Assembly (NCBI GenBank): GCA_964016885.1
Contig: OZ024743.1
Location: 158,410,001 to 158,474,000, forward strand
From: Eledone cirrhosa
Taxonomy: Eukaryota
Direction of reading: 5' to 3'
Length of the DNA stretch: 64,000 nucleotides
The position numbers and the translations under genes are program-made. This document shows, one piece after another, positions 7,831 to 54,033 of this stretch (its first letter is position 1; every line of letters begins with the position of its first letter). A model generated the notes under the pieces. The model was not told the DNA's origin and did not search any database. It saw only the letters and a list, made by a program, of their open reading frames with translations.

Positions 7831-7905
<75 letters not shown>

Positions 7906-7986
7906 TTATTTATCTATCTATCTATCAACCTAATTATCTATCCATCCATCCATCCATCTATCTATTTATCTATTTATCTATCTATC
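7831..7986. repeat. (CT)n followed by (ATCT/ATCC)n microsatellite; left boundary of the Tx1 array
   Basis: Direct read of the sequence. Confidence 0.95.
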
Positions 7987-8809
7987 TAATCTCTTTTACC
8001 ATAGCCACTATACAGAGGAAAACTACCTCTCTTTCGTTTTTGAAAGAAGTTGGCGGTTTGATCATTACTATGGACTCGGCAGTCAACTGGATTTGTCCCA
8101 TATGTGACAGCAGTTGTTCTGCATAGTTCCACAGGCTGGTTACGCCTGGGCAGTGTACAATTGTGTGCAAGACGGTTTCAATGTCCTGCTCGCATCTTGG
8201 ACATGTCCTCTTGGAAAGATCCCTGTTGGGGAATCCGTGCAGAACAACTGCTCTCACGTATGAGACAAATCCAGTTGACTGCCGAGTCCATAGTAAAGGT
8301 CAAACCGCCAACTTCTTTCAAAAACGAAAGAGAGGCGGTTTTCCTCTGTATAGTGGCTATAGTAAAAGAGATTATATGGTGGACAAGATTGAGAGGACTG
8401 AGGACAGATGCCTTTCTCTCCGGACAACAACTCATTCCCTTCTTTAGGTACCACTTTAGAAGAAGAATCAGAGTGGGGAGAGAGGCACTGCACCCCAGTA
8501 AATTTACTGAAAGGTGGGTGAATGTAGCAAAAATGGTCCAAGTGATTGGGCCTTCTCTGTATATAAACCTGTAGGTTGAAGATGAGAGCAAAAGGAGGAA
8601 TGGAGCACTTGCACAACACGCTCCTGGAGTTGAGGGTTGTTCTATCTGCGGGGTATTAAACAACCCATTTGTAACGCCTCCCCCTATTGGGGATTTCGAT
8701 TGTTGAATTTGTTTGTCTAAAAATTTTTTTAGACGATTGTATGTAAAATCCCGGCATATGTCCTTGTATTGTTCCCTTTTCTTGTGCGCCCTTGTGGCAA
8801 ATAAAGAAA
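7987..8809 (+). mobile_element. Tx1-clade LINE copy 1: 3' fragment (8238-8809) with an inverted 5' segment (7987-8237)
   Basis: ORF 8104-8574 ends like ORF2 of the other copies (WWTRLRGLR...GPSLYINL). Minus ORF 7982-8257 encodes the CPRC..ETVLH..HC region. 3' end CCCTTGTGGCAAATAAAGAAA then (ATCT)n. Confidence 0.9.
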
Positions 8810-8832
8810 TCTATCTATCTATCCATCCATCC

Positions 8833-8879
<47 letters not shown>

Positions 8880-8883
8880 CATC

Positions 8884-11561
8884 GTCCGAAGCAAAATACG
8901 TGCTCTGGGAAACGAGGGGACCAAAGCTGTTAGCTGGGCCCGCGTGACAGAAGCCAAAAGAGGGAGCAGATCCACTATCCGGTCTTTGCGAGACCAGGAT
9001 GGACGGGTGATCCTTGAACCTAAGCAGATGTGCGAGGCTTTTCAAAAGCACTTTGCCGGATTGTTCGGAAGGGGCGGGGGGCCGGTTGGGGACGTGGACT
9101 TCGGTCCATACCTCGACGGCCTGCCGCGTCTCTCGGACAGGGAGGCGAAGTCCTACGAGGAGCCGATTTCAGCCGCTGAGATAGAGGACGTGCTGAGCCA
9201 ATGCGGCAAACGCAAATCCCCGGGTCTCGATGGTCTTCCATACGAACTATATCTAGCTATGCCGGACTTGTTCCCCGATCTCCTCGAGGCGGTCTACTGC
9301 AACTGGCAACAGAACGGGAGAATTCCCTGTGCTGTGACCAAGAGCGTAGTCACGCTAGTGAGGAAGGACGAGAACAAGGGGGACGATATAAATAATTTCA
9401 GGCCCATAACTCTGCTAAATACAGAGTTACAGATTTTGGCCAAGGTGCTAGCAAAGAGGTTGGCGCTTGTCGTGGGCAACCTGGTGGGAGATGCGCAGAC
9501 ATGTGCTATCCACGATAGGTCCATCCACGATAACCTCCACCTCATGCGATACATCATAGAGAGGGTTGGGAACGAACCCGGCTTTGGTGGGGCCCTGATC
9601 AACTTGGATCAATCTAAGGCATTCGATAGGGTCGACCATGGTTACCTGGATGCGGTGCTAGCGGCGGCAGGCTTCGGACCCGTTTTCAGGGGCTGGATCA
9701 ATGCCATGCACAGCAGCCGCATCTGCTCTAGGGTCAAGGTGAACGGCTACCTCTCGGAGCCGTTCGAAATCGCGCGGTCCATCTGACAGGGGTGCCCTCT
9801 CTCCTCCCTTCTGTATGTAATGACTCTAGAGCCACTGCTGCGGAAGTTGGAGTTGTTGCAGGGCATCCCGTTGGAACCGGGATTGCGGAAAGCGGTGTCA
9901 GCCTACGCTGATGACGTAACAGTAATGGTGTCGACGGCCTCGGAAATCGGGGCGATCGGCACCTTACTGGAGGAGTACGAAAGGTTTACAGGGGCTAAGC
10001 TGAACCGGGACAAGTCGATCGGTCTGCAACTCGGCACATGGAGGGGCAGATCGATGCCTTCCGATGGCGTCGTCGGGCGCTGGACGGAGGGCCCGGTGAA
10101 GTTGCTCGGGGTCTGGTTCGGACCAGACCTCCAGGTGGAGAAGAACTGGGGTGAGGTGACGAACAGGGTGTTTGCACTGACCCAGAAGTGGGCTGAGTGC
10201 AAACTGTCCCTGAAAGGTCGGGCGGAGGTGGCGAACACTTATATAGCGTCCGTCATCTACTACCGCCTGACCGTTGTGCCTTGCCCAAGGGAAACGCTCG
10301 CCAAAATGGAGCGCGCACTCTTCCAATTCCTTTGGAAGAAGCGGGCTCCTATGGTGAGGAGATCCATCTGCTGTCAACACCCTTCGAAAGGAGGGCTGGG
10401 GATGCCGTGGCTAATGATACGTAAACACGCATTAAGGCTACGGCACCTTCAGGTATTCCTCTCCGGTCAACCGGTGTGGGCCCCGTTTGTGAGGCGAGCC
10501 TTTCCCAGACTCGTCTCACTCACCGAGCTGCAATCCTGGGTCAAGCAAAGACCGAGAAAACTGGGCGCCTGGTACACCGAGTGTGCCCAGGCGCTCACGG
10601 CTCTCTGGCAGGCGGACCTGGCTGTCAGTGGAGAATCCACCTCGTCATTCTATAGAGGGCTGCTGGTTAGCAGGTGCGACAACGCCCTCGGAGAAGCCCT
10701 AGGCATGGAGGAAGACGAACTGGCCAACCTGTTCGGTAGGACATTCAGCCCGGGACCCATGGACAACTTCCAGAGATCCCTGGCCTGGCTATGCTACAGA
10801 AGGGCTCTGCCCGTTCGAGAAAGGCTCTACAGACACGGGCGCCCGGGTAGGGACCCATCGAAAAAGATCTGTCCCAGATGCGTGTGCGACGAGGAAACCG
10901 TTGCACACGCATTGGTACACTGCTCGGGCATTGCCGATCTGTGGGGCTATGTTGAACAACTGCTGTCAAGGGTGGGACCGATCCGGTTGACCACCGAGTT
11001 TATTGTAACGATCAAGCCGCCTCCCCTCTTCAAAAACGAAGGAGAGGCGGTGTTTCTGTGCGTAATAGCCATGGCGAAAGAGGTTGTATGGTGGACGCGT
11101 CTGAAAGGACTAAGGTCAGACACCTTTCTCTCTGGCCAACAACTGGTCCGTTTCTTCCGATATCATTTCGGAAGAAGGATCAGGATGGAGAGAGAGGTGC
11201 TGCACCCCAGCCGTTTCTATGAAAGATGGGTGAAAGTGGCGAGAATGGCCCGTGTGAATGGGCCTTCACTCTACATCAGACTATAGGTGAGGAAGATGAA
11301 AGACCAAGGGAGCACCCCTTCTCTGTGCTCCTGAGGAGAAGGGTTGCACACTTTTTTCGGGGGTGTGTGCGACCCCCCCCCCCCCCCCCCCCCAAGGCGC
11401 CTCCTCTCTATTGAGGACTTTGTTATAAATTTTATTTTTGTTATATTTTATTTTATTTTTATATATTGTTATTGCCTCCTCCTTATTGAGGACGCCTTGT
11501 TTTGTAAACTCCCCCATTGTACTTGTCCCACTTTTGATGCCCTGGTGGCAAATAAAAGAAA
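8884..11561 (+). mobile_element. Tx1-clade LINE copy 2, 5'-truncated, RT plus C-terminal Zn-finger, single in-frame stop at 9784
   Basis: KSPGLDGL, NFRPITLLN, LDQSKAFDRV, SI*QGCPLS, AYADD, GGLG, CPRC..ETVAHALVHC. Bounded on both sides by (ATCT/ATCC)n. Confidence 0.95.
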
Positions 11562-11921
11562 CATATCTATCTATCCATCCATCCATCTATCTATCTATCT
11601 ATCTATCCATCCATCCATCTATCTATCTATCTATCTATATATCTATCCATCCATCCATCCATCTATCTATCTATCTATCTATCTATCCATCCATCCATCT
11701 ATCTACCTATCTATCTATCTTAATAGAGTGAGACACGCTTCACATCGGCTCCGCTATTCTATCGGAATTTACCCTTACTATAGTAAGTACCAGTGAATTT
11801 TTTCAGTGCAACACATTTGGAACACTTACCCCTGTTATTTAGGGAAACATTTTTACATTTACCCCCTTTTTAGGGGGTAAAATAAATAACTATTTTTCTG
11901 TAAAACTTCTTTCTTGGCAGC

Positions 11922-13755
11922 ATGGCGGAAAAGATGGCAGACATGTCTGCCATTAGCTCTGCCACGCCCCCCCCCCCCCCCCCCCCAAGTCTGAAGAACA
12001 AAAAATGGATACAACAAAACTAGACAACGAAACAAACAAGGAAAATGAAAAAACGAATGTTACGGAAAATGAGCAAACGGAAAACAAACAAACAGAAAAT
12101 AAGAATACAAAAAACAACAAGGCAACTTTCGCCCAGACAACAAAAAATCTATAATATATACACCTATAGACTTAACTGCCGCCAGAGAGAAACTGGCAGA
12201 AGCAAAAAAACACATAGTCTTGGGGGAGAACGGAATGTTTTCCATTAATTCCCCCCCAGAATTCAAGAAAACGAGAATAGAAAACACTGTTCTGTTTAGA
12301 ACAATCTTAAACCAAACGAGAAAGCCAGCACAGCCCAGCCAAATGGAGATAGAGTTGGTCCTAAAAGACTATATGAAGAATATTCTCTTCATACGAAAGG
12401 ACCGACTCTATGGCAGCATTTCGGTCTTAACAAAAGACAAGGAAACAGCGCAGAGGCTTTCCCTAAGCCCACTCTCATCAACAGCATACAGCTTCTATCC
12501 CTCCTACATGGGTAGAAGAACACAGAGAGTCAAAATACAGACAATGCTGCCCACAATGGACTTCTGGTGGGCTATTGCTGGCTTCATAGACATGGGCGAG
12601 GACACAGTGCTGTCAATGGGGAAGGCATCTGGAGATGCGTTCCTGGGAATGGGCCTCGACCTACTAGTCCAAATGAGGCCCGAAAGAATAGCACAAATCC
12701 CGGATCGCATCTGGCTGGATGACCTCACCCCAATATATATAATTGTAGAGGGGAGAAGACCAGCATGCTATTCATGCACGGAAAGGGGACACGTTAAGGC
12801 TAACTGCCCGAATCGTATCCCCCAAAAAGGACTATTGCCCACACCCACCACAAACAGTACACCAACACCACCCACCTCCAAAAATACACTAATACCACAC
12901 ACAGCAAACAAAATACAGACACCACCAACCACAAGCACAACACAAACATCACCACCACCAGCACCAAACACAAGCACGACACAAAAATCACCACCACCAT
13001 CACCAACCACAAGCACGACACAAACATCACCACCACCACCACAAAACGCATTCCAAACAAATAATAAAAAAAAACAGCAACAAATCTACCCCACCCGTAA
13101 AAAAAACAACCAGACACCACGTCCTTCCCACCTAGCGCTGAAGAGTTTCCCCCAACTTCTGAAGAAGAAGGAGGAGAAGCCTTCAGACAAGTTAAAAGAA
13201 AAAAACGAAAGCACACACCCAGCACACCACAAATAACCCACACACAAACACCAACTCCAATCAAAAACACCCCACCCTCGACAAACAAAAATAAATCTGC
13301 GCCTCCCCTCTCCGAAACATTGACAGTATCACAAAAAAAGACTTTGCAATACACATATATAAATAAAGAAAATAAAAAACTGTTTAAATTAATAAACAAT
13401 AGCCCTTTGGTGCAGACCGAAGGGCCAAACTTTATCTCAACAGAGAACTTCACCCATTTAAAAATGATAAAGGTCCCTCTGGACCTTTATCGTTCCTTAA
13501 AAGAACAATTTAAACAGGACGTGAGCCCCCCCCCCCCCCCCCCCCTGTTTAAAACCGTTAAATCGCGTCCTCTTGAAAGATTTCCCCATAACCTCCCCTC
13601 TCCCTGACACAACTCCAAATACCCCAACCCCACCACACTCGGATACCCCCACACCACCACAAAACATCCCTCCACCCAACACACCCGACGCCATGGAAAT
13701 TACACAACCCAGAGAGGTAGGTGCTTTTCTTTCTTCACTTTCAACACCAAAATAG
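11922..13755 (+). pseudogene. Tx1 ORF1 (gag-like, zinc knuckle, Pro/Thr-rich), frameshifted
   Basis: ATGGCG start at 11922. 'VEGRRPACYSCTERGHVKANCP' (CX2CX4HX4C) lies in ORF 12220-13236. Some of the frameshifts coincide with poly-C/poly-A runs and could be assembly errors. Confidence 0.8.
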
Positions 13756-13760
13756 ATCAA

Positions 13761-16700
13761 TTGAGAGTTGGCTATTTGAATGCGCGTGGCCTGGGCTCAG
13801 CTTGGAAGCAAGCAAAGCTTCTAAGTGACCTCAGGTCACGAAGTATAGATGTGATGGTTGTTTGCGAGAATCGGATCAGCAGCGTGCGACAGCTGGCTCC
13901 CGCCTTCGATGACTTTGAGATGCACGCATCTCTCTGTCAACCCGGAGGCGGGGGTGGGGTTGCCGTACTGCTGGATAAACGTCTGGCTCTCGACGTACAG
14001 ATTGTTCACTCGGACCCGGAGAGGGGGGGTCGATTACTGGTGCTGGACGTCGGAGGCGATGAAGGCGGGGCTTTCAGACTGGTCGGTCTTTATGCCCCCT
14101 TCGGGGCTGAAAGAGCCGACTTCTTCCAGCGTCTGGAGACTTTTCTAGGAACGTCGCGTTCCCTGCTTTTAGTGGGGGACTGGAATGGAATCCTAGATGC
14201 ACGTTGGGACTATGCAGGGGCATGTCCCGATAGAGGGGGGTGTAGCAGCCTCAAGGGGTTACTCGATCGATTCGACCTGGTCGATAGATTTCGACTAGAT
14301 TTTCCAACTGTGCCAACCTGGACCTGGGAAAACTGCAGTGGTCAATCTAGATCGTACCTAGTTGTCCAGAATTGCTCATGGTTGGCTATTCAGATCACAA
14401 ATTAGTGACCTGCGTGGTCAACCTTGATAGAACGCATAGACAGGGTCCCGGTTACTGGAAGATGAACTTGTCCTTGCCGGCAAAGGAAGCTTACAGGAAC
14501 CGGATTAGTAGCTTAGTTAACATGCGGTTGACGGGAGCGATCGTCAACAGCAGGTGGTGGGTATCTCTAAAGAGAGAGATTAGAGTAAGTTCGATAGGTT
14601 ACAGTAAGGAACTAGCGGCGAATAGAAATAGGAGGGAAAGGGAGTTAACAGATAAACTAGAAGAGGCGATTAGGAGCGGAGACGTGGCCAGAGTGTTAGC
14701 GTCGAGAACGGCGTTGAGCCAGTTCTTTGACGCGAAGCAGGAAGGCTGCGTTGTCCGAAGTAAAATACGTGCTTTAGGAAACGAGGGGACCAAAGCTGTT
14801 AGCTGGGCCCGCGTGACAGAAGCCAAGAGTGGGATTAAATCCACCATTCGGTCTTTGCGAGACCAGGATGGACGGGTGATCCTTGAACCTGAGCGGATGT
14901 GCGAGGCTTTTCAAAGGAACTTTGCTCGACTGTTCGGAGGGGGCGGGGGGCCGGACGGGGATGTAGACTTCGGTCCATACCTCGACGGTCTACCGCGTCT
15001 TTCGAGCGGCGAAACGGAGTGCTGCGAAGGGCCAATCACAGCCACTGAAATCGGGGAAGCGCTCAGCCAATGCAGCAGACGCAAATCTCCGGGTCTCGAT
15101 GGTCTACCATACGAACTTTATTTAGCTATGCCGGTCTTGTTCTCCAAACTCCTCGAGGCTGTCTATTGCAACTGGCAACAGAACGGGAGAATTCCCTGTT
15201 CTGTGACCAAGGGCGTAGTCACGCTAGTGAGGAAGGACGAGAGCAAGGGGGACGACTTAAGTAACTTTAGGCCCATAACTCTGCTGAATGCAGAGTTACA
15301 GATTTTGGCCAAGGTGTTGGCGAAGAGGTTGGCGCTTGTGGTGGGTGGTTTGGTGGGAGACGCGCAGACATGCGCTATCCCGTCCAGGTCCATTCACGAC
15401 AACCTCCACCTCATGCGATACATCGTAGAGAGGGTTGGGAACGAACCCGGCTTTGGTGGGGCCCTGATCAACTTGGATCAATCTAAGGCGTTCGATAGGG
15501 TCGACCATGGTTACCTGGATGCGGTGCTAGCGGCGGCGGGCTTCGGACCCATTTTCAGGGGCTGGATTTCTGCCATGCACAGTGGCAACGTCTGCTCTAG
15601 GATTAAAGTAAACGGCTACCTCTCGGAGCTGTTTCAAATCACCCAGTCCATCAGGCAGGGGTTCCCCCTCTCCTCCCTTCTGTACGTATTGACTCTCGAG
15701 CCACTGCTGCGGAAGTTGGAGTTGCTGCGGGGCATACCCCTGGAACCGGGATTGCACAAAGCGGTCTCGGCCTATGCCGACGACGTAACAGTAATGGTGG
15801 CGGACGCCTCGGAAATCGGGGCGATCGCCACCCTACTGGAGGAATACGGAAGGCTGACGGGGGCTAGGCTGAACCGGGACAAGTCAGTCGGCTTGCAACT
15901 CGGAACGTGGAGGGGCAAACCGATGCCGTTAGACGGTGTCGTCGGGCGGTGGACGGAGGGCCCGGTTAAGCTGCTCGGGGTCTGGTTCGGACCGGACCTC
16001 CAGGTGGAGAAGAATTGGGGCGAGGTGACGAGCAGGGTGTTTGCGCTGACCCAGAAGTGAGCCAAGTGCAAACTATCACTGAAAAGTCGGGCGGAGGTGA
16101 TGAACGCTTACATAGCATCCGTCATCTACTACCGCCTAACCGTCGTGCCTTGCCCCAAGGAAACGCTCACCATCAAGGAGCGCATGCTCTTCCAGTTCTT
16201 CTGGAAGAAGCGGCCTCCCATGGTGAGGAGATCCATCTGCTGCCAGCACCCTTCGAAACGAGGGCTGGGTATGCCGTGGCTGTTGATGCGTAGGCACGCA
16301 TTGAGGCTACGGCATCTACAGGTATTCCTCACCGGTCAGCCGGTGTGGGCCCTGTTTGTGAGGCGAGCCTTCCCACAGCTCGTCTCGCTCACTGAGCTGC
16401 AATCCTGGGTGAAGCAAAGACCGAGAAAACTGGGCAACTGGCACACCGAGTGTGCCCAGGCGCTCACGGCTCTCTGGCAAGTGGACCCGACTGTCAGTGG
16501 AGAATCCACCTCGACATTCTATTGAGGGCTGGTGGCTAGCAGGAGCGACGACACCCTTGGAGAGTCGCTAGGCATGGAGGAGGACGAACTGGCCAGCCTG
16601 TTCGGTAGGACTTTCGGCTCGGGACCCATGGACAACTTCCAGAGGTCCCTAGCCTGGCAGTGCTACCGGGGGGCTACCCGTCGAGAAAAGCTCTACAGAC

Positions 16701-17152
16701 ACGGGCGCCCGGGCAGGGATCCCGCGAAAAAGATCTGTCCCAGATGCATGCGCGACGAGGAAACCGTTGCGCATGCACTGGTACACTGCCCGGGCGTTGC
16801 CGATCTGTAGGGCTACGTCGAACGACTGCTGTCGCGTGTGGCGCCGATTCGATTGACCGCCGAGTCTGTGGTGAACATCAAGCCGCCTCCTCCCTTCAGA
16901 AATGAAGCAGAGGCGGTCTTTCTGTGCGTAATAGCCATGATGAAAGAGGTTGTGTGGTGGACGCGCCTGAAAGGTCTGAGGTCGGGTGACTTTCTCTCCG
17001 GCCAACACCTGGTTTACTTCTTCCGATACCACTTCGGAAGAAGGATCAGGATGGAGAGAGAAGTGCTTGGCCCCAGACAGTTTTATGAAAGGTGAGTGAA
17101 AGAAGCGAGAATGGCTCGTGTAAATGGGCCTTCTCTCTACATTGTTCTGTAG
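13761..17152 (+). pseudogene. Tx1 ORF2 (APE endonuclease, reverse transcriptase, C-terminal CCHC), disrupted
   Basis: LNARGL, VCE, GGGVAVLL, GLYAP, VGDWNG and SDHK (APE); IRQGFPLS and AYADD (RT). A short deletion/frameshift near 14360 removes the RLD-region residues present in copy 5. Stops at 16058, 16808 and 17093. Confidence 0.9.
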
Positions 17153-17439
17153 GTGAAGAAGTGAAGAGGAAAGGGGGAGCACCTCCTCTCTGGGCTTCCT
17201 CTGCGAAAAGGGTTGCACACTTTTCGGGGGTATGTGCAATCCCCAACACACCCCCTCCCTTTTGAGGACTTTTTATTATTATATTATTCTTATTGTTATG
17301 CCTTTTTCTTTACTCGCATTTATGTAAACTCCCCCCTGTGTATTTGTCCCTTTCTCTTGTGCCCTAGTGGCAAATAAAGAAATATATCTATCTATCTATC
17401 CCTCCATCCATCCATCTATCTATCTATCCAGCCATCCAA

Positions 17440-18969
17440 GATGGTCTACCCTATGAGTTTTACATAGGTATGCAAGACTTGTTCTCTGGCATCCTCGAAG
17501 TGGTCAACTGCAACTGGCAGCAGAACGGGAGGATTCCCAGTTCTGTAGGCAGAGGCATAGTAACGCTGATCAGGAAAGATGAGAACAAGGGGGATGCACA
17601 AACGTGTGCAATCCCAACCAGGTCTATACGCAACAACCTCCACCTCATGCGATACATCATAGAGAGGGTAGGGTGTAAACCTGGCCTCGTTGGGGCTCTG
17701 ATCAATTTAGATCAGTCTAAGGCATTTGATAGGATCGACCATCAATACTTAGAAGCAGTTCTCAAGGCAGCTGGCTTCGGTCCCATCTTCAGAGGCTGGA
17801 TCGCTGCCATGCACACCAGCATCTGCTCGGCAGTCAAGGTGAATGGCTACCTATCGGAGCCATTCCAAATCATGCGTTCCATCCGTCAGGGGTGCCCTCT
17901 CTCTTCCATTCTGTATGTACTGACTCTCGAACCATTACTGCGGAAGTTGGAGCTGTTGCAGGGTATCCTGATGGAACCAGGACTGCGGAAAGCAGCGTCG
18001 ACCTATGCCGACGACATAACCATAATGGTGTCGAAAACCTCGGACATCGGGGTGATCGGCAACCTATTACAGGAATACAAAACATTGACAGGAGCAAGAT
18101 TAAACCCAAACAAGTCTGTCAGTTTACAGCTCGGCACATGGAGAAGCAAACCCATGTCTTCTGACAGTGTCGTTGGACACTGGACGGAAGGACCAGTGAA
18201 ATTGCTCAGGGTCTGGTTTGGTCCAGACCTCCAGGTGGACAAGAACTGGAATGAGGTCACGGCGAAGGTGTTTGCACTCAGCCAGAAGTGGGCTGAGTGC
18301 AAACTCTCCTTGAAAGGTTGAGTGGAGGTGGCGAACACTTACATAGCATCCGTCATCTACTACCGCTTGACAGTTATGCCTTGTCCCCGCGAATACCTCA
18401 CCAAAATGGAACGCCTACTCTTCAAGTTCCTCTGGAAGAAACAGGCTCCATTGGTGAGGAGATCCATATGCTGTCAAAACCCTTCTAGCGGAGAGCTGGG
18501 CATGCCTTGATGATGCACAAACACACACTGAGGCTACGCCATCTCCAGATATTCCTGACCGGCGAACCGGTGTGGCTGTCGTTTGTGAGACGAGCTCTTC
18601 CACAACTCATCTTACTAACAGTCCTCTTACTGCAGTCCTGGGTCAAGCAAAGACCGAATATGGGCACCTGGCACCTCAAATGCCTTCAGGCACTCATAGC
18701 CCTCTACTAAGCGGAAACAGCAATCAGCGGAGACTCCACTTCGACATTCTATAGGGGATTAGTGGAGGATAAGTGTGACAATGTTCTCGGGGAAACTCTA
18801 GGCATCGAGGAAGATGAACTGACCAGTCTGTTCGTGAGGACTTTCCGTCTAGGGCCTATGGATAACTTCCAGAGGTCTCTGGCCTGGCAGTGCTACCGAG
18901 GAGCTCTACCAGTTCGAGACAAAATCTACAGGCACGGACGCCTTGGCAGAGATCCTGCTAAAAGGACCT
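17440..18969 (+). mobile_element. Tx1-clade LINE copy 4 (second subfamily), 5'-truncated, internally deleted, 3' end missing
   Basis: RT motifs in ORF 17470-18321 (IRQGCPLS, TYADD). Starts after an (ATCC)n tract and stops at GRDPAKRT, where it is fused to copy 5. Confidence 0.9.
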
Positions 18970-21900
18970 TTTCGCCAACTCTTCTCCACCAACATTGTAA
19001 ATCTACGAGTTGGAAGTGTGAATGTGTGTGGCATAGGGATGCCCTGGAAACAGGGATAACTTTTAAAGAACATTAGATCACACAGTATGGATGTGATAGC
19101 CATCAGTGAGTCCAGGATCCACAATAGGCAGCAACTAACCCCCATCTTCAATGACTTTGAGATCTACGCATCTCTCTGTCAGCCAGGAGGTTGAGGGGGA
19201 GTGACTGTTATGTTTCGAAAAAACCTGGACCTCGAAATACAGCAAATACACTTGGACTCGGAGGGTAGATTGGTGGTCCTAGACATGAACAGTGTTGGAG
19301 GTGGAGCCTTCAGACTGGTGGCCGTTTATACCCTGACTGGGACATCGCGGCCAGACTTCTTTAAACGACTAGAGTCTTTTCTGGGAATGTCTCGCTCCTT
19401 GCTTTTAATAGGGGACTAGTATGGTATCCTAGACGCACGTTAGGACTATGTAGGAACATATCTCAGTAGAGGGGAATGCAACAGCCTCAAAAATTAGGTA
19501 TTGACTAGATTTCCCGACTGCACCACAGTGGACATGGAAAAATTGCAGTGGGACATCTAGATTGTATTTAGATAGATTCTTAATTAAAGAGAGAGAGACA
19601 GGAAAATGTTAAGCTGTCCACAAATGTATATGGTTGCCTATTCAGACCACAAACTAGTCACCTGCATAGTCAACCATGATAGAATGCATAAACAAGGACC
19701 CGGATACTGGAAGCTGAACAAATCGTTACCGACGCATAAAGCCAAGGTAGAGGAGGTGCTTAGGAGTGGCAATGCAGCTAGGGTGCTAGCAACGAGAATG
19801 GCACTAGACCAGTTCTTCGATGCGAAACACGAAGGCTGCATGGTCAGGAGTAGATCACGTGCTATAGGAAACGAGGGAGCAAAAGCTGTTAGCTGGGCCT
19901 GAGTGACAGAAGCGAAAAGTGGCAACAAGTCCATGATTCAGTCTTTGAAAAACGGACACGTGCTACCTGATTCCAGGCAGATGTGCACTGCCTTTCGGTA
20001 TGGACTCCAAGTTCTGCGAAAGACCGATCACAGTCACTGAGATACGGGACGCTCTGGGCCGCTGCAGGAAATGCAAATCACCCAGTCTAAATGGTCTACC
20101 CTATGAATTTTACATAGGCATGCCGGACTTGTTCTCTGGCATCCTCGAAACCGTCTACTGCAACTGGCAGCAAAACGGGAGATTTCCCAGTTCTGTAGGC
20201 AGGGGCGTAGTAACACTGATCAGGAAAGACGAGAACAAGGGGGATGAGATAAGTAACTTCCGGCCCATAACTCTCCTAAACACAGAGTTAAAGATTTTGG
20301 CCAAGGTGTTAGCAACGAGGCTGGCGTTTGTCGTCGAGAACCTGGTGGGAAAAGCTCAAACATGTGCAATTTTGACCAGGTTCATACACGACAACCTTCA
20401 CCTCATGCGATACATCATAGAGAGGGTGGGGTGTAAACCTGGCTTCGGTGGGACTCTGATCAATTTAGATCAGTCTAAGGCATTTGATAGGGTCAACCAT
20501 CGATACTTGGAAGTAGTTCTCAAGGCGGCCAGTTTCAGACCCGTCTTTAGAGGCTGGATCACAGCCATGCATACCAACATCTGCTCAACAGTCAAGGTGA
20601 ACGGCTACCTATCGGAGCCATTCCCAATCATGCATTCTATCCGACGGGAATGCCCTTTCTCCTCCATCCTATACGTATTGACTCTGGAGCCACTACTGGG
20701 GAAATTGGAGCTGTTGCAGTGCATCCCGTTGGAACCGGGACTGTGAAAAGTGACGTCGGCTTATGCCGATGACGTGACAGTAATGGTGTCGAAAACCTCG
20801 GAAATTGGGGTAATTGGCAACTTACTGCAGGAATACGAAAGGATTACAAGAGCAAAACTCAACCCGGAAAAATCTGTCAGTTTGCAACTCAGAACGTGAA
20901 GAGGCAAACCGATGGCATACGACAGCATCGTCGGACTCTGGACGGAAGGACCGGTGAAATTGCTCAGGGTCTGGTTCGGTCTGGACCTCGAGGTGGAGAA
21001 AAAATTGGGACGAGGTCACGGCGAAGGTATTTGCGCTCAACCAGAAGTGGGCAGAGTGCAAACTATTCTTGAAAGGTTGAGTGGAGGTGGCGAACACTTT
21101 CATAGCGTCCGTCATCTACTACCGCTTGACTGTCATGCCTTGTCCCCGTGAATACGTCACCAAGATGGAACGCATGCTCTTCCAATTCCTTTGGAAGAAG
21201 CAGGCTCCATTGGTGAGGAGATCCGTCTGCTGCCAGCACCCTTCCAACGGAGGGCTGGGAATGCCGTGGTTGATGATGCGCAAACACGCTCTGCGGCTAC
21301 GGCATCTCCAGGTATTCCTCACCGGATAACCGGTGTGGGCCTCATTTGTGAGACAAGCCTTCCCACAACTTGTCTCGCTGACGGAGCTGCAGTCCTGGGT
21401 CAAGCGGATACCAAAGAAATGGGCGCCTGGCACATTGAATGCACTCAGGCGCTCACAGTCCTCTGTCAAGCGGGCACAGAAATTAGTGGAAACTCCACTT
21501 TACATTCTATAGTGGGATAGTACGACACAAGTGCAATGACGTGCTCGGAGAAACTCTGGGTGTTGAAGACGACAAGCTCATCAGTCTGTTCCGTAGGACT
21601 TTCCACCCGGGACCTATGGACAACTTCCAAAGGTCCCTGGCATGGCAGTGCTACCGAGGAGCTCTACCATGCGATAAGATCTACAGGCACGGGCGCCCCA
21701 GCAGAGATCCTTCTAAGAGGATGTGTCCAAGATGCGAGCGGGACATTAAAACCATCCTCCACGCATTTGTACACTGCCCGGGTGTAACAGACCAGTGGAA
21801 CTACGCAGAACAACTGCTGACGCGTGTGGGACAAATCCAGTTGACTGCCGAGTACATAGTAAGGATCAAACCGCCACCTTCATTTAAAAATGAAAGAGAG

Positions 21901-22377
21901 CCGGTTTTCCTCTGTATAGTGACTATGGTGAAAGAGGTTATATGGTGGACAAGGTTGAGAGGACTGAGGGCAGATGCCTTTATCTCCCTTCTTTAGGTAC
22001 CACTTTAGAAGGAGAATCAGAGTGGAGAGAGAGGTACTGCACCCCAGTAAATTTACTGAAAGGTGATTGGCCCTTCTCTGTATATGAACCTGTAAGTTGA
22101 AGAAGAGAGCAAAAGGAAGAAAGGAGCACTTGCATAACATGTTCCTGGAGTTGAGGGTTGTTCTATCTATGGGGTATAAAACAACCCATTTGTAACGCCT
22201 CCCCGCTATTGGGGATTTCGATTGTTGAATTTGTATGTTAACATTTTTTTACACGTCCCACCCTTGCAAGCAGGGAAGAGCAGACATAAAATGATGATGA
22301 TGATGATGTATGTAAAATCCCCGGCATGTCTTTGTATTGTCCCCTTTTCTTGTGCGCCTTTGTGGCAAATAAAGAAA
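18970..22377 (+). mobile_element. Tx1-clade LINE copy 5 (second subfamily), ORF2 and 3'UTR, decayed
   Basis: LRVGSVNVCG APE start near 19003, LLIGD, YSDHK, RT ORF 20000-20746, Zn-finger ORF 21541-21996. Its 3'UTR matches copy 1 and is followed by (ATCT)n at 22378-22445. Confidence 0.9.
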
Positions 22378-22762
22378 TATATCTATCAATTTATCTATCT
22401 ATCTATCCATCAATCCATCTATCCATCTATCTATCTATCAATCTTTCTTTCTTTTTTATTTCTTTCTTTCTTTCTTTCCCCTTCACTCTGTGTATGATAA
22501 TAAAACAGAAATAGCTGTAAAGATGGCAACTTAGATATTTTGTAATCATCAAAGAATCCTAGTTAAGCTTTGTTCCATTTGTTTTTGCCTTAGAATGTTT
22601 TTTATTTCTATTTTAAAGTCATAGTGTCTACTAAAAATATTTTTCATTTCTTTTTCTTCTTAAGTCTGAAATTGGACACAAGGATGAATCATGGACTGAA
22701 TTGAGAGGAAAATGCCACCATTTAGATCAGGTACATTTATGGCTTTTATTTGTTTTTTCATA

Positions 22763-23269: not shown

Positions 23270-23388
23270 ATTCCAAAATCAACATTGCCTTTCATCTCTC
23301 CAGGTTTGATAAAATAATGTGCTGGGGTCAATTTAATTGACTTCCCTCTCTCCTTCAAATTGCTGGCCTTGTGCCTATATAAGAAACA
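23270..23388 (+). mobile_element. 3' half of Deu/Nin-like SINE ending in (ATT)n
   Basis: GCCTTTCATC...TGATAAAATAA...GCTGGCCTTGTGCCTATATAAGAAACA then (ATT)n at 23389-23430. Confidence 0.75.
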
Positions 23389-23429
<41 letters not shown>

Positions 23430-23430
<1 letters not shown>

Positions 23431-23831
23431 TCAAGTTTCACTTGAAGAGGAAAATCAGGGTGGAGAGGCAAGTGCTGCCTTCTAGCAAGTTTGTTGAAAG
23501 GTGGGTGAATGTAGCGAGAATGGTCCGAGTGAACGGGACCGCTCTGTAGTTTGAGAGATGGAAAAATTGAGAGAGGGTGCTTGCCCTAGTGGTCAGGGTG
23601 GCCGTGGTCTTTTGTGTGGTTTTCGCCATGAGTAACCCTATTGGGGAATTTTTCATTGTTTCAGTTTTCATTTTTATTGTTTATATATATATGTTTCTAT
23701 GTCTTTTTTTCTTTTCTTATATAAATAATAAAAATATTTACACGCACAAAACCCACATCATACCGTCCTGTACCGTCCTGTGCCGTCTGTAATGTTTTTC
23801 TTGATGTCAGCCCTTGTGGCCAATAAAGAAA

Positions 23832-23833
<2 letters not shown>
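23430..23833 (+). mobile_element. Tx1 family B 3' fragment, flanked on both sides by (ATT)n
   Basis: FKFHLKRKIRVERQVLPSSKFVERWVNVARMVRVNGTAL* is homologous to the array ORF2 C-terminus. Ends CCCTTGTGGCCAATAAAGAAATC then (ATT)n. Confidence 0.9.
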
Positions 23834-23878
<45 letters not shown>

Positions 23879-23879
<1 letters not shown>

Positions 23880-26060
23880 TTTGAGTCTCAGTCATTGATG
23901 TTATTTAACTGGAAAGTCTGTTGAAATGAATATCAAGCCACTACCTGCAGCCTCAGATATTCAGGACGTATCGGAGGGTTCTTGCTGTTCCCAGCAAGCA
24001 TGCCTTTTGAAGTGTTCCAAAAAGCGGGGCGGGACCAATTTTCTTTAACCATCCTTGGAAACTTTTTGAGATAGTACCTAGTGCGCCTATGACAATCGGG
24101 ACCACTTTGACCTCATGGCAGTTCCAAATCCTTTTTACCTCCCACTTTAAGTCCTGGTATCGGTTAATTTTCTCTTGCACTCTTGTGTCGAATGGACAGG
24201 CTACATCCACAATCAGGCACAATCTTTTTCCCTTGTCCAAAACCACCAGGTCAGGTCTATTGTGTTCCAGTTTCTTGTCCGTCTGTATCCTAAAATCCCA
24301 CAGCACCTTCACCTGATCGTTTTCCATCACCAACTCTGGCTTATGCTCATACCACTTCTCAGAATGTGGTAAATTGTTTACTTTGCATAGGTGCCAGTGG
24401 ATCACCCTGCCCATCACATCATGTCTCCAGCCTTTACAGTGAGTCTGGGCTAGGTGTTTACACTTGGATACAATGTGAGCCACAGTCTCCTCTCTCTCTC
24501 CACAGATCCTACACAGTGAGCTAGCCTCATCCTTATAAATATGGTGTTTCAGCCACTTCGTTTTGAGGGCCTGCTCTTGTGCAGCCATTAGCATTCCTTC
24601 TGTAGCCTTTTTAAGGTCTCCTCTTTTCAACCAGTTCCATGTCTGTGGATCTCTAAATTCAGTTTTCTCAAAGAAGGCACTATGAAGGGATTTTTCATGA
24701 AGGTTGCTCTTTCTCCTTGTTGTTATTTCCTCCTTGGACATACCCTGGTCTATTGTCCTCTCCTTCGGTACAATTCTGAGCATTGGCTCCCTACTATCAG
24801 TCACGTATTTGTGCAGGTTGTTTTTCTTCATCTGAACACAGTCCTCTATGCTGATAAGACGTCTTCCACCTTCAGATCTCCTTAAGTAGAGTCTATCGAC
24901 ATCACTCCTTTTGTGGAACATGTTGTAGATAGTTAATAGCTTCCTAGTCTTCCTATCCATTTCTTTTTGTTCAGCAACATTCCATCTCAGAATTCCCATA
25001 CTGTACCTAATAATAGACACAGCTCGGGAATTTACTGCACTTATGGCATTCCTACTGTTCAGTTGTGACTTTAATACGCTCCTTACTCTCCTAATGTATT
25101 CAGATCTTATCAATTCCTACATTTGTTTGTTCTTGATGTCATCAGCCTCCAGAACACCTAAATATTTGTATCCCTCTTCAGTATAAATTTCCTTTATCAT
25201 CTCACCTGTTGGTACCTGGATTCCGTTGCTTCTGCTCAATTTACCCCTCTTCATCACAAGGACTCCACACTTACTAATACCAAATTGCATACATATATCA
25301 TTGCTGAAAATACGGAGTGTCAACAAGCACATCCAACTCCTTCTCACTCTTCCCGAAGAGCTTAAGATCGTCCATGAAGAGGAGGTGATTGATGGTAAGC
25401 TCTCCCTTTCCCAACTTGTATCCTGCTCTCACTTTTTGCAGTATAATGGTCAGGGGGATCAGGGCAAGGACAAACAACAGAGGGGATAAACTATCTCCCT
25501 GGAAGATACCTCTCTTGATCTTCACGCCTCCCAAGGATTCTCCACCCGATGTTAACTCTGTTTTCCAGAACTTCATACTTTTACTCAACAACTGTCTGAT
25601 GTTATCTGCTACCCTGAAGATCTCTAGGCTTTTGGTTATCCAAGAATGAGGTACCATGTCGAATGCCTTTTTGTAGTCTACCCATCCCATGGCAAGACCA
25701 GTGTGTCTCCTCCTGCAATTACTCATCACCATTTTATCAATAAGTAACTGGTCCTTTGTACCACGGGACTTCTTTTGGCATCCTTTCTGTTCGTCCGATA
25801 ACAAGTTGTTTATGTGGAGGTGATGGTAGATTTCCTCAGACACAATGCTTGTTAACAGTTCCCACATTACGGACAGACATGTGATAGGTCTATAGTTGGT
25901 AACATCATTACCCTTGGTTCGGTCTTTCATTACCAGAACTGTGTTACCTTTTGTCAACCACTCTGGTACCTCACCTGTCATCAAGCAGTCATTGAACATG
26001 GTTGTCAGTTTCGGGTGGAGGGATGTTATATTTTTAATCCAATACCCCTGCACACCATCC
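23879..26060 (-). mobile_element. R4/Dong-type non-LTR retrotransposon (RT plus restriction-like endonuclease), 5'-truncated, frameshifted
   Basis: NYRPITCL, DYKKAFDMVPH, GIFQGDSLSPLLF, HLLFMDDLKLF; CRIC...ETVAHIVSKC, WRHD, RPDLVV, DVACPFD, EKINRYQDL. Its 3' end abuts (TAA)n on its own strand. Confidence 0.9.
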
Positions 26061-26426
26061 GAAAAGGAAAATCAGGGTAGAGAGGGAAGTGCTCTCTTCC
26101 CAGCATTTTGTTGAAAGATGGGTGAGAGAAGCAAGTATGGCCCGAATGAATGGGCCTACTCTGAGTATGTGTCTGTAAATTAAAGATGGAAAACTAGGAG
26201 AGGGCACTTGCCCTGGTGGTCAGGGTCACTGTGGCCTTTTAATGGGCTTTCTCCACAAATGTCCCTCGGAAGTCTCCCCCCTATTGGGGAATTTTTCATT
26301 GTTATTTTTTTTATTACATTCTCTGTTTTTTTTTACACACAGAAATGTCCATTTGTACCATCCTGTATTGTCCTGTACTGTCCTTAATGTCTACTTTATG
26401 TAAACCCTTGTGGTTAATAAAGAAAG

Positions 26427-26427
<1 letters not shown>
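26061..26427 (+). mobile_element. Tx1 family B 3' fragment with (ATT)n tail
   Basis: KRKIRVEREVLSSQHFVERWVREASMARMNGPTLSMCL*. Ends CCCTTGTGGTTAATAAAGAAAGC then (ATT)n at 26428-26492. Confidence 0.85.
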
Positions 26428-26492
<65 letters not shown>

Positions 26493-26494: not shown

Positions 26495-26720
26495 GGGCGG
26501 TGGATTGGTAATATCGGTGGAGAGTCAGACACCATGCTTTGCAGCATTGAGTTACAGTCCTTTACAGTCTGATTTCAAATCCCACCGAGGTTAACTTTGC
26601 CTTTCATCCTTACGGGGTCGATAAAATAAAGCACCAGTAACGTACTGGGGTTGATTTAATCGACTTCCCCTCCCCCCAAATTACTGGCCTTATGCCTATA
26701 CTAGAAATCATTATTATTAT
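26495..26720 (+). mobile_element. Deu/Nin-like tRNA SINE, full length, (ATT)n tail
   Basis: GGGCGGTGGATTGGTAATATCGG...TTCAAATCCCACCGAGG...GCCTTTCATCCTTACGGGGTCGATAAAATAAAGCACCAG...TAGAAATCATTATTATT. Confidence 0.85.
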
Positions 26721-27169
26721 ATTTATTGATCAAAAATAAAGAAATTACATTTTCTACACTTTACTTAACATTTTGTTGTTCCTTGTTGTATTTGGATTAC
26801 TAGATATCAATCTGTTTCCTGCATCTTTCATATAATTCTTGTTGTGCCAAACAAACAAACCTACAGAATTAAGAAATTCATCTCTATACCCAATATTTTC
26901 AACCAACCATTCACTAAAGTTCCTATTACAATTGGGATGATAACTTTGCAGTGATTTCAGAGTCTGCATTCCGTATTTCAGGTCTTGGTATACATAAAAT
27001 ACCAGTTATGTACTGAGGTCAATATAATTGACTTTTCCATCCACAAAATTGCTGGCCTTGAGCCTAAATTAGAAACTATTAAATTGTCTGAACACAAAAC
27101 TGAACGAAGATTTTGGCAAAAGTACTTTCTAAATAGTTGGTGTCTGTCATTGTTAGTGTAGTTAGAGAT

Positions 27170-31189: not shown

Positions 31190-31290
31190 AATTATTTCTA
31201 CTTTTGGCACAAGGCCAGCAATTATCCAGAGTATTACTGGTACTTTATTTTATTGACCCCGTAAGGATGAAAGGCAAAGTTAACCTCGGA
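31190..31290 (-). mobile_element. 5'-truncated Deu/Nin-like SINE
   Basis: Matches the 3' half of the 578-763 SINE. Further decayed copies near 28730-28880, 31480-31710, 35625-35790, 43955-44130, 44620-44760 and 50460-50625. Confidence 0.75.
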
Positions 31291-33631: not shown

Positions 33632-34020
33632 AAGGCTCATGGCTTAGTGGTTAGAGCATTGGGCTTACAATCGAAAGGTTGTGAGTTCAATTCTTGGACT
33701 GGGTGATGTGTTGTTTCCTGGAGTAAGACACTTTATTTCACATTGCTCCAGTTTACTCAGCTGTAGAAATGACATGATAGGACTGAGGTCCCTATCATTC
33801 CACTGCAAAGTGGTCGTGGAGGTGCCATGGCAAAAAAAGCACCCAGCACTCACTGTAAATGGGGTTGGTGTTAGGAAGGGCATCCAGCTGTAGAAATCAA
33901 GCCAGAATTAGTTCCCGTATGAGCAAGACATGGTCAGCCGACTGGACACTGCCCACAACAGGACAACCCATCTAACCCATGCTAGCGTGGAAGAACGGAC
34001 GTAAAACGGTGATGATGATG
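33632..34020 (+). mobile_element. Full-length tRNA-derived SINE with RTE-like (TGA)n tail
   Basis: A box TGGCTTAGTGG, B box GAGTTCAATTC, core GAGTAAGACACTT and GGAAGGGCATCCAGCTGTAGAAA, tail AACCCATGCTAGCGTGGAAGAACGGACGTAAAACGGTGATGATGATG. Confidence 0.85.
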
Positions 34021-36251: not shown

Positions 36252-36340
36252 TTCTACTTTATCTCTGTGCATTACTGGTACTTTATTTTATCAACTTCGT
36301 AAGGATGAAAGGCAAAGTTAACCTCGGCGGGATTTGAACT
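36252..36340 (-). mobile_element. Truncated Deu/Nin-like SINE with 15-bp TSD
   Basis: Core ACTGGTACTTTATTTTATC...GGATTTGAACT flanked by CTCTACTTAAATAAT / ACTCTACTTAAATAAT. Confidence 0.8.
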
Positions 36341-38225: not shown

Positions 38226-40412
38226 TTAATTTAAGACTAACAAGAACCCTAGTGTCGTAATGAGATAGTGCAGATGTTACAATAAAATACATCTAGCCCA
38301 CTCTGTAAGGTGGTAGTACTGGTGCCATGACAAAATCCACTCAGTCCACCCTGTAAGGTGGTAGCACTGGAGTCACGATAAACTGATTCCAATACATGCC
38401 ATATAAACCAAACTAAAAACACGACACATAAGTAAAACATGGTCACTTGACCATTCTAGCCTTAATATATGATATTCTATCTAACCCATGCAAGCATGAA
38501 AAATAGATATTAAATGGTGATGAAAGCCTAGTTTCTCTAGTGTTAAACATGTTCACATAGGTGGTATCATAGCCAATGAGGGTTATCCGAGGCATGGTTA
38601 TTGCTAGTTGAAAACTAAACTATATAGATAAATTTTCTCCCATACAGGATGTTGGTCCATTGAAGTTTACTTTACTAGACATTTTGCTAACTATTTTCAA
38701 CAGATATTGTATCCCAGAATACATTAACCATTGTGTACTTCCTTTTTTGAAGATGGTAGGGTATGATTTCAAGAAAAGTTTCTGCTCAAAAAGATTTGCT
38801 AGAGGATATCAGCAGTCAATATCTATCATTGTGTATGTATTATAAGTACATTATAAAGACCTGATATATCACTGGCTAGAGAGGAGAACCGTACTATTTT
38901 TTAAAATGGCAGTTTCAGGCCCATGTCTCTTCCACCAACTCTTTTGTTTTTATGTTAATTTTGAAAATTTTATTTGTTTGTTAGTTTATTTTCGCAGAAA
39001 CGTATTCCCCTATGTTTCAAATATAGGAATCCGAAAAATATATATTTTTTAAAATTAATATGGAAACAAAAAATGGATGTAGCGGTTTGAAAAATATGTG
39101 CTTTTTTTGTGAAATCATAATGTCCTCTTTCTGTGCGCGCGCGCTATACAGTTGTAAATTGTCTAATATACATATCAATGAAAACAGCTGTCCATATCCA
39201 GTGTATTTTGGGATGCTAAATATTACTGTAATATTTTTACGTATATAACAAGAGAACGCAGAGCATGTATTGATTTTAAAGTAATGACTCATGCATTGAT
39301 AATTCACCACCTTTAGGGCACTCGACCATTTCAACTGCTTTTATAATGTCACGAAACGAATATTGAAAATAAGAATGTACAAAAATAATAATACATTTTA
39401 AAAAGTGGAATTAACTAGCTTTTTTGTCAGTCACCCAATCAGTCATCACTAAAAGTTCAAATAGCTTCTGCCTCCTTTTCGTTATTTATTTGTTGTCTGC
39501 TCCGTCCAAGCATGGCGTTGACAAGGGAAGGGGTTAGTATGATAATTACTATCCTACAACAACGACAAGAGAAGGAGTTTATATGACCTACAAGAAAACT
39601 TACTGTCATAAAAAGGAAGAACAGACTGAAGACGATAACACATTTCGTTTATCTTTTATCTGTTGTCCGCTCTATACAAACCTGGCGAAGGAATGTATCA
39701 GTACAGAAGGATAATGGCTATCACAACACCCAAGAGACATTTCAGTTAATGCTGTCCCATGACCTTCTAGCAATGAGTTCATGCGGATAAATCTAAACCA
39801 CAAATTGCCGTATTTCTTTTAAAACGTATGTCAGTCACAACCCGGCAACCAAGTAAGATTAAAAGATGATATTGTGAATGCCGTACAAAAATAATCTTTT
39901 AAATTGAAATTAATGAAAATTTTAATTAAATAAGATTATTCTTTTTCTTTTTTCTGTACATCATCTCTTGATTAGAAAATAATTGCTTCCGGCTTTCAGT
40001 ACATCACTCCTTAACCTCCAAATTCATGCCATAGGCACATTATTTCCCCTAACCTTTTTTTTGAAACTAAAGATTATTCGCAATTTTGCATCTGCTGGGG
40101 GAATTTATGATCCCTTATGTGAGTAAAAGACTATGGAATAAAATCACAATTTTGACTATAAAATGAAACTAAAAGGTATTTTCTCTGAAACCGAAAGTTT
40201 ATGGAGATGACCATAGAGTTCTAGGAATGGTGGAGTGCTTCCACTCTATTGTGGATGTTCAGTGCGGCCCTCTGAACAAGATAAGAATTATGCTCTTATC
40301 CAGCAGATTACACGTAGGCAGCAACTGCATGACAGGACTTTTTGCTACATTTCAAATATTTGTGCCAATTTTTATATAAATTTAAACTACTTTACAAAAT
40401 AGTAGTAGTAGT

Positions 40413-41767: not shown

Positions 41768-42493
<726 letters not shown>

Positions 42494-48510: not shown

Positions 48511-48694
48511 TGTTTCTACTTTTGGCACAAGGCCATCAATTATCCAGTGCATTACTGGTACTTTATTTTATCGACCCCGTAAGGATGAAAGGCAAAGTCA
48601 ACCTCGGCGGGATTTGAACTCAGATCGTAAAGGGACGTAACTATGCTGGAAAGCATGGTGTCTGACCCTCTACCGATACTGCCAATCCACCGCC
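48511..48694 (-). mobile_element. Deu/Nin-like tRNA SINE, full length, 15-bp TSD
   Basis: Nearly identical to 578-763. TSD TGCAATGAACATAAT at 48496-48510 and 48695-48709. Confidence 0.92.
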
Positions 48695-49805: not shown

Positions 49806-51011
49806 GTGGATTCACACCGTTTCCACACTACAAACACCATCTCACACTACCCTTCCGCCATTCCCATATCTACCACTCAGCATTACTTCACTACTTTCAT
49901 TTTCTCCTCGGCAATTTTGTGACTTAGGAATAAGATTTATTGTTCTTTCGTCTGAATGCTCTTCTCCCTCACAGCATAAAACATAACGCTGTTTCAACTA
50001 TTCCTATTACTTTTCACCTTTTTACTAATAAGATGGGATTTGTTCGATAACATTTGGCCTAGGGATAATCAGAAACAAAAGAACTACAGCCCTAAGAGGT
50101 TGCTAACCCTCCTAGAAATAGCAGCAGAAACTCCCATAAATTATGCATCTTAAAATCATAAAAAACGACACATAGCATAATGTAATCCTTGATGCCACGC
50201 GAAACGATGGGATGCTCATGATTGTATCTTCTTTGGTCATATGCCTACTCAGTATTGACTAGAAGATAAAACAACAAGACTAACAATAGAGCATTTTCGA
50301 TTTTATTCTGTCCAAACACTAGGAGACTTCGAAGAATCAAATGAATTGGACCAGAATGTATTAATGATACATTTTATTGTTATTGTACCGGTATAGAATA
50401 ATTAATCCTGGGGAATTACAAAATCTTATCAGTTCAAATCCAATAAGAATCGACAATCATAGTGTTCTGCATTCAAATCCCGCTGAGGTTAGCTTTGCCT
50501 GTCATCCTTACAAGATCGATAAAATAAAATACCAGTCACGCACCGGGGTCGGTTTAATCCCCCCCACCCCCCACCCACCCACCCAAAAAAAAATTGCTGG
50601 CCTTGTGCCTATATCAAAAACATTTATTATACTAAATATTAATATACATTCATATTGCAAGTTAGATTTGCAAAAAAATCATTTGGATTTTGACGAAGGA
50701 TTAGATACCTAAAACCGAAAAACAATTATTCTTTTATATTCATCCACGATTATTTTAATTGCCGAAAATCATGATTACCTTTATTGAATCTGACCATATT
50801 GCAGTTTTTGTAGTTTTGTTCGCGCCAGTCACTAAGTTTGTCATTTTCTCAGACCCATGAAGACAGCTTTTTTAAAAGCGGCATTTACTTACACCCATTA
50901 CTCCATCTTCCCTCGTGGCTTACCTCTGTTTGGTCCGGGCTGCTTATTCGTCCAGCAGGAGCCGATATATATCGCAGCTGACCATCATAGGAGGAGAGGA
51001 AGGGGGAGATG

Positions 51012-53949: not shown

Positions 53950-53993
<44 letters not shown>

Positions 53994-54033
53994 GATATTA
54001 AATAAATGGAAACTATATTTATAAAACCATATT

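Follow-up and report, generated by a model that had tools for sequence, protein, structure and literature searches.

Which retrotransposon copies the abundant SINE of this octopod genome? The question is raised by a short locus in which an old SINE copy and a 5'-truncated Tx1-like LINE lie next to each other, each followed by an array of ATT repeats. We analyzed this locus within the whole 64-kb stretch of DNA around it (the window), which is repeat-rich animal DNA with a GC content of 38%. The nearest named relatives of the L1-type reverse transcriptase in the window are Argonauta hians proteins (62-66% identity). The names Tx1, R4/Dong, RTE, Penelope and CORE, which we take to fit the window elements, were assigned from architecture and not from the database names of the matches. 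The original prediction held that the SINE shares its 3' terminus and its (ATT)n tail with one LINE family, called Tx1-B here, and is mobilized by it. Our own reading is that the SINE, which carries a predicted hairpin and an A-rich signal at its end, probably depends on an ATT-associated Tx1 family, whose ORF2 protein would copy it (probability about 0.6). The locus and its neighbors are arranged as follows.

23281-23388 (+): old SINE copy, 3' part; terminal 26-mer 23363-23388, predicted hairpin 23365-23375
23389-23430 (+): (ATT)14 array, tail of the SINE and likely target of the next insertion
23431-23833 (+): Tx1-B copy 1, 5'-truncated; last ~39 ORF2 codons and 3' UTR
23808-23833 (+): terminal 26-mer of Tx1-B copy 1; predicted hairpin 23810-23820
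23834-23878 (+): (ATT)15 array 3' of Tx1-B copy 1, tail and target inseparable
23879-26062 (-): R4/Dong-like element, 5'-truncated; end unlike the SINE end
26061-26427 (+): Tx1-B copy 2, 5'-truncated; in its predicted hairpin (26403-26415), A-U takes the place of a G-C pair
26428-26492 (+): (ATT)21 array
26495-26709 (+): full-length long-form SINE, inserted where the ATT array ends; (ATT)3 behind it

The element at 23879-26062 is presumably R4/Dong-like, as its C-terminal endonuclease motif indicates. Its truncated 5' end abuts the 5' end of Tx1-B copy 2 directly, on opposite strands. Both Tx1-B pieces (from 23431 and from 26061) start within ~15 bases of the same ORF2 position. This coincidence could be fortuitous, mark a hotspot of truncation or reflect a short form that is non-autonomous. 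The arrays, which both LINE types, Tx1-B and the Dong-like element, would later target, may have been seeded by SINE tails.

The SINE family and the Tx1-like elements

The SINE is about 190-215 bp long and non-coding, with a simple-repeat tail, and 10 copies from the window were aligned. It exists in a long form and in a younger short form without ~27 internal bases. Besides the two copies above, the following ones matter for the argument.

578-763 (-): young short-form SINE within an RTE-like element; 14-bp duplication 564-577/764-777
26994-27077 (+): old SINE fragment, end intact
31193-31289 (-): 5'-truncated short-form SINE, end intact; no duplication detected
36252-36338 (-): 5'-truncated SINE without the hairpin; 15-bp duplication 36237-36251/36339-36353
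43964-44127 (+): old SINE; end left out of training and recovered by the profiles
48511-48694 (-): young short-form SINE; 15-bp duplication 48496-48510/48695-48709
50466-50622 (+): old long-form SINE, end intact

The copy at 36252-36338 lacks ~19-22 bases at its end, which stops at a short TAA repeat. In two reduced-representation runs, 183,769 of 12,467,656 reads and 170,773 of 12,785,554 reads were assigned to one SINE copy, and this share of 1.3-1.5% should not be read as a copy number. Of the loose read ends in run X4, 14,913 correspond to the short form with the same 3' end as the long form. Among the 24 loose-end rows and 40 variant rows listed, there was no alternative, longer Tx1-like SINE tail. 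A pile of read ends at 26679-26682 coincides with an AATT site, so it is likely a library cut site.

An A-box-like motif is present in all three SINE heads (3 of 3) and a B-box-like motif is visible by eye in the SINE alignment, while neither ARAGORN nor Rfam found a tRNA at the head. The original prediction had called the SINE Deu/Nin-like. Among the bivalve Meta+Deu consensus rows covered, no match to the SINE was found by eye, and two SINE core words were absent from two supplements searched. A 30-base pattern of the core matches two unrelated metagenome contigs (L001 75-104 and L002 701-730) with different flanks; the core is therefore a conserved domain in repeats of other organisms, for which the name Deu/Nin was not confirmed. 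The two contigs from the metagenome scan have the core only in common with the SINE, and pattern scans of viral contigs gave no match to the SINE core or to the Tx1 end.

On the LINE side, TATC/CATC arrays at 7831-22450, upstream of the locus, enclose a cluster of nested Tx1-like copies. There are at least five of them, with 75-85% identity to one another, and one is nearly complete; the related elements span 7991-22379. They form a (TATC)n-associated Tx1 family, called Tx1-A here.

8784-8811 (+): Tx1-A 3' terminus 1, then TATC/CATC array
11535-11563 (+): Tx1-A 3' terminus 2, then TATC/CATC array
11721-17384 (+): near full-length, broken Tx1-A copy with ORF1 and ORF2; terminus 3 at 17357-17384
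22352-22379 (+): Tx1-A 3' terminus 4, then TATC array

All four Tx1-A ends (4 of 4) have TATC/CATC arrays directly 3' of them. An ORF1 with a CCHC knuckle is a feature of the Tx1 clade, and the Tx1-A ORF1 (12103-13236) has one such knuckle (CX2CX4HX4C). ORF2 comprises an apurinic-type endonuclease and a reverse transcriptase, and a C-terminal zinc domain is present in another Tx1-A copy (Pfam PF03372, PF00078 and PF13966). The best match of ORF2 among solved structures is human L1 ORF2p (E 3e-29), and R2 ranks behind. Tx1-A thus shows the ORF2 architecture of the L1 superfamily, the ORF1 knuckle and the microsatellite target preference expected of the Tx1 clade. None of the database matches obtained for the window reverse transcriptase is named Tx1, and the label comes from architecture. 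Among prokaryote genome contigs, none of 61 candidate stretches was confirmed as a Tx1 locus.

Of ORF2, the Tx1-B pieces retain no more than the final 35-39 codons, next to the UTR. The pieces share 67-72% identity with Tx1-A over 108 coding columns (copy 1: 68-72%), and these columns, with the UTR, are all that ties Tx1-B to the Tx1 clade. Between the two pieces, the coding sequence is just 75% identical, compared with 96% identity for two short-form SINE copies. Because of this divergence, Tx1-B comprises at least two ATT-associated lineages. There is no young Tx1-B copy in the window.

Several other elements are found in the window. The stretch 33636-34020 has a tRNA-like head (Rfam, 29.4 bits), a body, a 229-column match (80%) to the 3' UTR of an RTE-like element and an (ATG)n end; it represents another SINE-like element, whose partner is of the conventional kind. 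A U4 snRNA match at 38547-38678 (Rfam, 59.3 bits, E 1e-10) is probably a retrocopy. Beside (TA)n arrays, a perfect 165-bp inverted repeat (41866-42030 and 42324-42488) is either MITE-like or an assembly feature. A large inverted repeat at 53985-59379 (~98% identity), which flanks Penelope-like open reading frames, looks young. A 140-aa frame at 52427-52849 (-) has no Pfam match and presumably resembles a fragment of a Helitron protein.

The 3' terminus and its predicted hairpin

The terminal 26-mers are as the original prediction gave them (SINE 23363-23388 and 26684-26709, Tx1-B 23808-23833), and each of the two SINE ends has 17 of 26 ungapped identities with the Tx1-B end, as it had also proposed. 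Shuffles of the Tx1-B 26-mer reached 17 against the SINE majority string in 6 of 200,000 cases. Among the 26-mers of the window, 6 of 126,828 score at least 17, which are an eighth SINE end, two Tx1 ends and three background positions. Overall, SINE and Tx1 ends share 13-19 of 26 bases (50-73%). Similarity ceases 5' of the 26-mer (6-16 of 40 bases, ungapped, in 24 pairs). Plain BLASTN of SINE against Tx1 found nothing (best E 1.5), whereas the SINE-like/RTE-like pair of the same window, used as a control, shares its 229 columns. The terminus is also where the LINEs resemble each other most: Tx1-A and Tx1-B have 65-88% identity in the last 30 alignment columns versus 46-52% over the remaining UTR.

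The SINE-Tx1 pairing was chosen post hoc. To reduce circularity, each profile was trained on one side only. With a profile trained on the 6 Tx1 ends, the SINE ends rank 7, 8, 9, 10, 24, 29 and 32 of 127,944, and the eighth SINE end ranks 13. With a profile from 7 SINE ends, the Tx1 ends rank 9, 11, 12, 14, 32 and 143, and when stem pairing was required they rank 9-13 and 16 of 6,855. Since the SINE copies are one family, these tests amount to about one test per direction. A count of the motif, in which 13 of 15 matches are element ends, is circular and was not counted as support. A covariance model trained on all 13 ends is circular too, yet it recovers an untrained SINE end at 44100. A shared 3'-terminal sequence, as expected for a stringent SINE/LINE pair, was thus found over 26 nt and above chance.

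Of the other LINE ends in the window, none comes near this level: the Dong-like and RTE-like elements have 8-13 of 26 identities with the SINE 26-mer near the end. The Dong-like element was rejected as a partner, as it lies on the opposite strand with 8 of 26 at its end, and so were the RTE-like elements of the window, which have (ATG)n tails and 9-13 of 26. CR1 was not recognized among the LINEs in the window. A better match in another LINE clade, which the original prediction regarded as decisive against it, does not exist among the LINE types in the 64 kb.

Within Tx1, the mean identity to the SINE is 15.6 of 26 for Tx1-A (28 pairs) and 15.4 of 26 for Tx1-B (14 pairs), and the top single value (19 of 26) is with a Tx1-A end. 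A profile from Tx1-A only puts SINE ends at ranks 7, 8, 10 and 11, and one from the two Tx1-B ends puts them at ranks 14, 15, 16 and 20. Because Tx1-A and Tx1-B fit the SINE end alike, a match specific to Tx1-B was rejected and the sequence indicates the Tx1 lineage. Of the proposed partnership, the link to the Tx1 lineage has held up in the reciprocal profiles and the predicted hairpin, and the choice of Tx1-B has not; that Tx1-B is the specific partner is doubtful. In sequence and predicted fold, a link of the SINE terminus to a Tx1-like lineage is supported, and the likeness appears to be real, short and backed by structure.

The predicted hairpin, in which a stem of 3 bp closes a loop of 5 nt (mostly CUUGU), is found in all 13 ends (7 SINE and 6 Tx1) and is followed by an A-rich spacer of ~13 bases in both SINE and Tx1 ends. 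CUUGU is also the majority loop in the reads of run X4, of which 723 of 801 and 1943 of 2155 have a G at position 26692. All 39 cells of the three inner stem positions are paired. At the middle position, 7 of 7 SINE ends have G-C and 6 of 6 Tx1 ends have C-G, and the next pair is of the GC type in 12 ends and A-U in one, Tx1-B copy 2. RNAalifold gives the same three pairs unprompted. The covariation score is 0.372 versus 0.136 +/- 0.048 in shuffles, none of which (0 of 500) reaches it, and slid controls give at most 0.093. Only 5 of the 13 ends form a fourth pair.

In a 42-nt context, the hairpin is part of the minimum-energy fold of all 13 ends, with weak folds of -2.3 to -7.1 kcal/mol. In a 75-nt context, 3 of the 13 ends, two of them from young SINE copies, no longer have the stem in their best fold. 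As the 13 ends stem from about three lineages, the covariation represents about two independent events. In simulations, the stem survived 9 random substitutions with one double change in 4.9% of cases, and 11 substitutions with two double changes in 0.7%. None of the 6 Tx1 ends in the window has the SINE's own stem orientation. A 3' stem-loop with compensatory changes, also expected for a stringent pair, was thus found with two double-change positions, which reflect few independent events. A paired hairpin with stem-preserving swaps suggests that a Tx1 protein recognizes the 3' end.

Target duplications, probable partner and alternatives

Clear target-site duplications were found in 3 of the 10 SINE copies examined. 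They measure 14, 15 and 15 bp and start with ATTAT on the SINE strand, in agreement with the original prediction. For the copy with the duplication at 48496, the exact repeat reaches 19 with 4 bases of 5' microhomology. Among the other copies, one has an uninformative match within ATT repeats and six have at most 6 bases. The duplications of Tx1-B are unreadable within the ATT arrays. The three duplicated SINE copies lie in unique sequence, whereas the Tx1-B pieces adjoin long ATT arrays. The SINE is thus less tied to such arrays than the two Tx1-B pieces. This points to a Tx1 family of lower target specificity as its main driver.

The claim of a shared (ATT)n tail stands in part. The ATT repeat favors Tx1-B and is the only feature that favors it over Tx1-A as a partner. 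The tail and the target of Tx1-B are inseparable, because copy 1 lies inside an ATT run which starts at the SINE end; the "tail" at 23834 may be its target, i.e. the expanded SINE tail at 23389. The partner may be Tx1-B itself, but as O. vulgaris has 80 L1-Tx1 families, it may also be a related family from beyond the window.

As the SINE end resembles Tx1 ends, including the predicted hairpin, the SINE likely borrows a Tx1 enzyme, a type of partnership for which few cases are documented. In the proposed mechanism, the ORF2 protein encoded by an ATT-associated Tx1 family would bind the SINE RNA by its hairpin and spacer. This protein would nick beside ATTAT, the AUU tail of the SINE RNA would pair with the freed end and prime reverse transcription, and a second cut ~15 bp away would create the target duplication. 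We infer ORF2 binding, trans-mobilization and the identity of the partner family from the resemblance, the pairing and the duplications.

The ATTAT start does not identify the partner by itself, because duplications which begin with the repeat letter of the tail have also been reported for RTE partners. It is therefore one argument for a different partner, a LINE of another clade which is absent from the window (CR1, L2, Nimb/I or another RTE) and has a closer end, the Tx1 likeness being due to convergence or to a swapped 3' module. Of 58 cataloged pairs, most partners are CR1 or RTE elements, these being the commonest types according to a portion of PMC3747384; 13 CR1 and 13 RTE families have been recently active in O. 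vulgaris, and the LINE comparison covered the types within 64 kb. However, the RTE-like and Dong-like ends of the window mismatch, and the RTE-like elements end in (ATG)n. The reciprocal ranking and the paired swaps favor Tx1 ends, and the 24 loose-end rows listed contain no alternative SINE tail. We consider a partner from another clade unlikely.

The duplicated copy without the hairpin (36252-36338) bears on another explanation, in which the terminus came from Tx1 long ago and the hairpin is no longer needed, as Tx1 or a different LINE would now mobilize the SINE mostly by way of the AUU tail. The clean duplication of this copy, the competing folds of the young short-form copies and the modest identity of the SINE to Tx1 ends (50-73%) would fit such a relic. 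But this copy may have lost its hairpin during or after insertion, the stem is retained in 7 of 7 aligned SINE ends, both young and old, and the young subfamily dropped ~27 internal bases while its terminus was kept. A relic is thus quite improbable. A chance likeness between two short, A-rich termini picked after the fact is the least probable explanation: the match is short and post hoc, three background 26-mers also score 17 of 26 and the SINE copies count as one observation, but the alignment is gapless and anchored at both true 3' ends, it is reached by 6 of 200,000 shuffles, four SINE ends rank 7-10 of 127,944, and the mismatches include a pair-preserving swap. Copying by an ATT-associated Tx1 enzyme therefore remains our preferred reading.

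If it is true, an animal SINE-Tx1 pair would be defined by a common 3' structure, and BLAST-type surveys would overlook its signal, which is very short and has covaried too much. The likely engine behind a major octopod SINE would then have a name as well. For partners which are invisible to similarity search, an anchored, structure-aware comparison of the last 30 bases offers an approach.

Comparison with known systems

SINEs make up 11.6% of the O. vulgaris genome. The octopus OR1/OR2 elements and the "tRNA-Deu" class of O. vulgaris are abundant octopod SINEs too, and the family described here, compared with them by description in the sources covered in part, may well be one of these annotated classes. 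No partner LINE of OR1/OR2 or "tRNA-Deu" is named in the portions of literature covered. Our literature searches yielded no cephalopod SINE described as ending like a Tx1 element; Repbase Reports, Dfam, SINEBase or subscription papers such as the 1994 octopus SINE paper may hold one. In the literature found, a SINE-Tx1 pairing is based on a common target (crocodilian SINEU), while tails of the L1 type that are shared with SINEs come exclusively from green plants. Tx1 is mentioned 5 times in the covered portion of the 2013 review (PMC3747384), each time outside its table of pairs, and the covered portion of Kojima 2018 (PMC5786205) contains no mention of Tx1 or octopus.

The closest case by clade is the crocodilian SINEU/Tx1-Mar (Kojima 2015, PMC4494074, as far as its covered portion goes), in which a SINE is likewise inferred to be mobilized by the Tx1 clade; the same portion describes Tx1 families which prefer microsatellites. 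However, SINEU has snRNA heads and poly(A) tails and its link is based on targets and ages, whereas here it is based on terminal sequence and predicted structure. No LINE sharing the 3' end of SINEU-1 was found there.

By mechanism, ZfL2-1, ZfL2-2 and UnaL2/UnaSINE are similar, in which the ORF2 protein reads a 3' stem-loop followed by a short-repeat tail (PMC4176376, covered portion). According to the same portion, the L2-clade ORF2 protein tolerates stem swaps and not loop changes. The recognition in the L2 clade is experimental, whereas the SINE-Tx1 recognition is predicted from sequence.

By structure, the nearest relatives are in plants. Ohshima 2012 (PMC3472496) lists L1-clade tails in 3 of 58 SINE/LINE pairs, all from green plants, describes a monocot L1-clade hairpin with compensatory changes common to LINE and SINEs, and proposes that the ancestral L1 recognized its own RNA stringently. 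In LINE1-1_ZM with ZmSINE2/ZmSINE3 and L1-1_CR with SINEX-3_CR, as here, the 3' end of an L1-superfamily element is more conserved than the remainder and is shared with a SINE; it is predicted to fold into a hairpin whose stem shows compensatory changes and whose loop is conserved. In contrast, these monocot and Chlamydomonas pairs involve green-plant L1 and ~50-80 nt of shared sequence, while the pair proposed here would involve an animal Tx1-like element and ~26 nt, with a stem of 3-4 bp and microsatellite ends (ATT, TATC). An animal Tx1 example would test the idea of a stringent ancestor beyond plants by means of an easily mutated 11-base hairpin. Whether octopod Tx1 is a stringent member of the L1 superfamily, with a minimal 3-bp stem, a CUUGU loop and a fixed distance to the tail as a signal which an abundant SINE exploits, is evenly balanced in our view. 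If so, the SINE-Tx1 link would be a stringent SINE/LINE pairing of the known kind, marked by the common Tx1 terminal hairpin.
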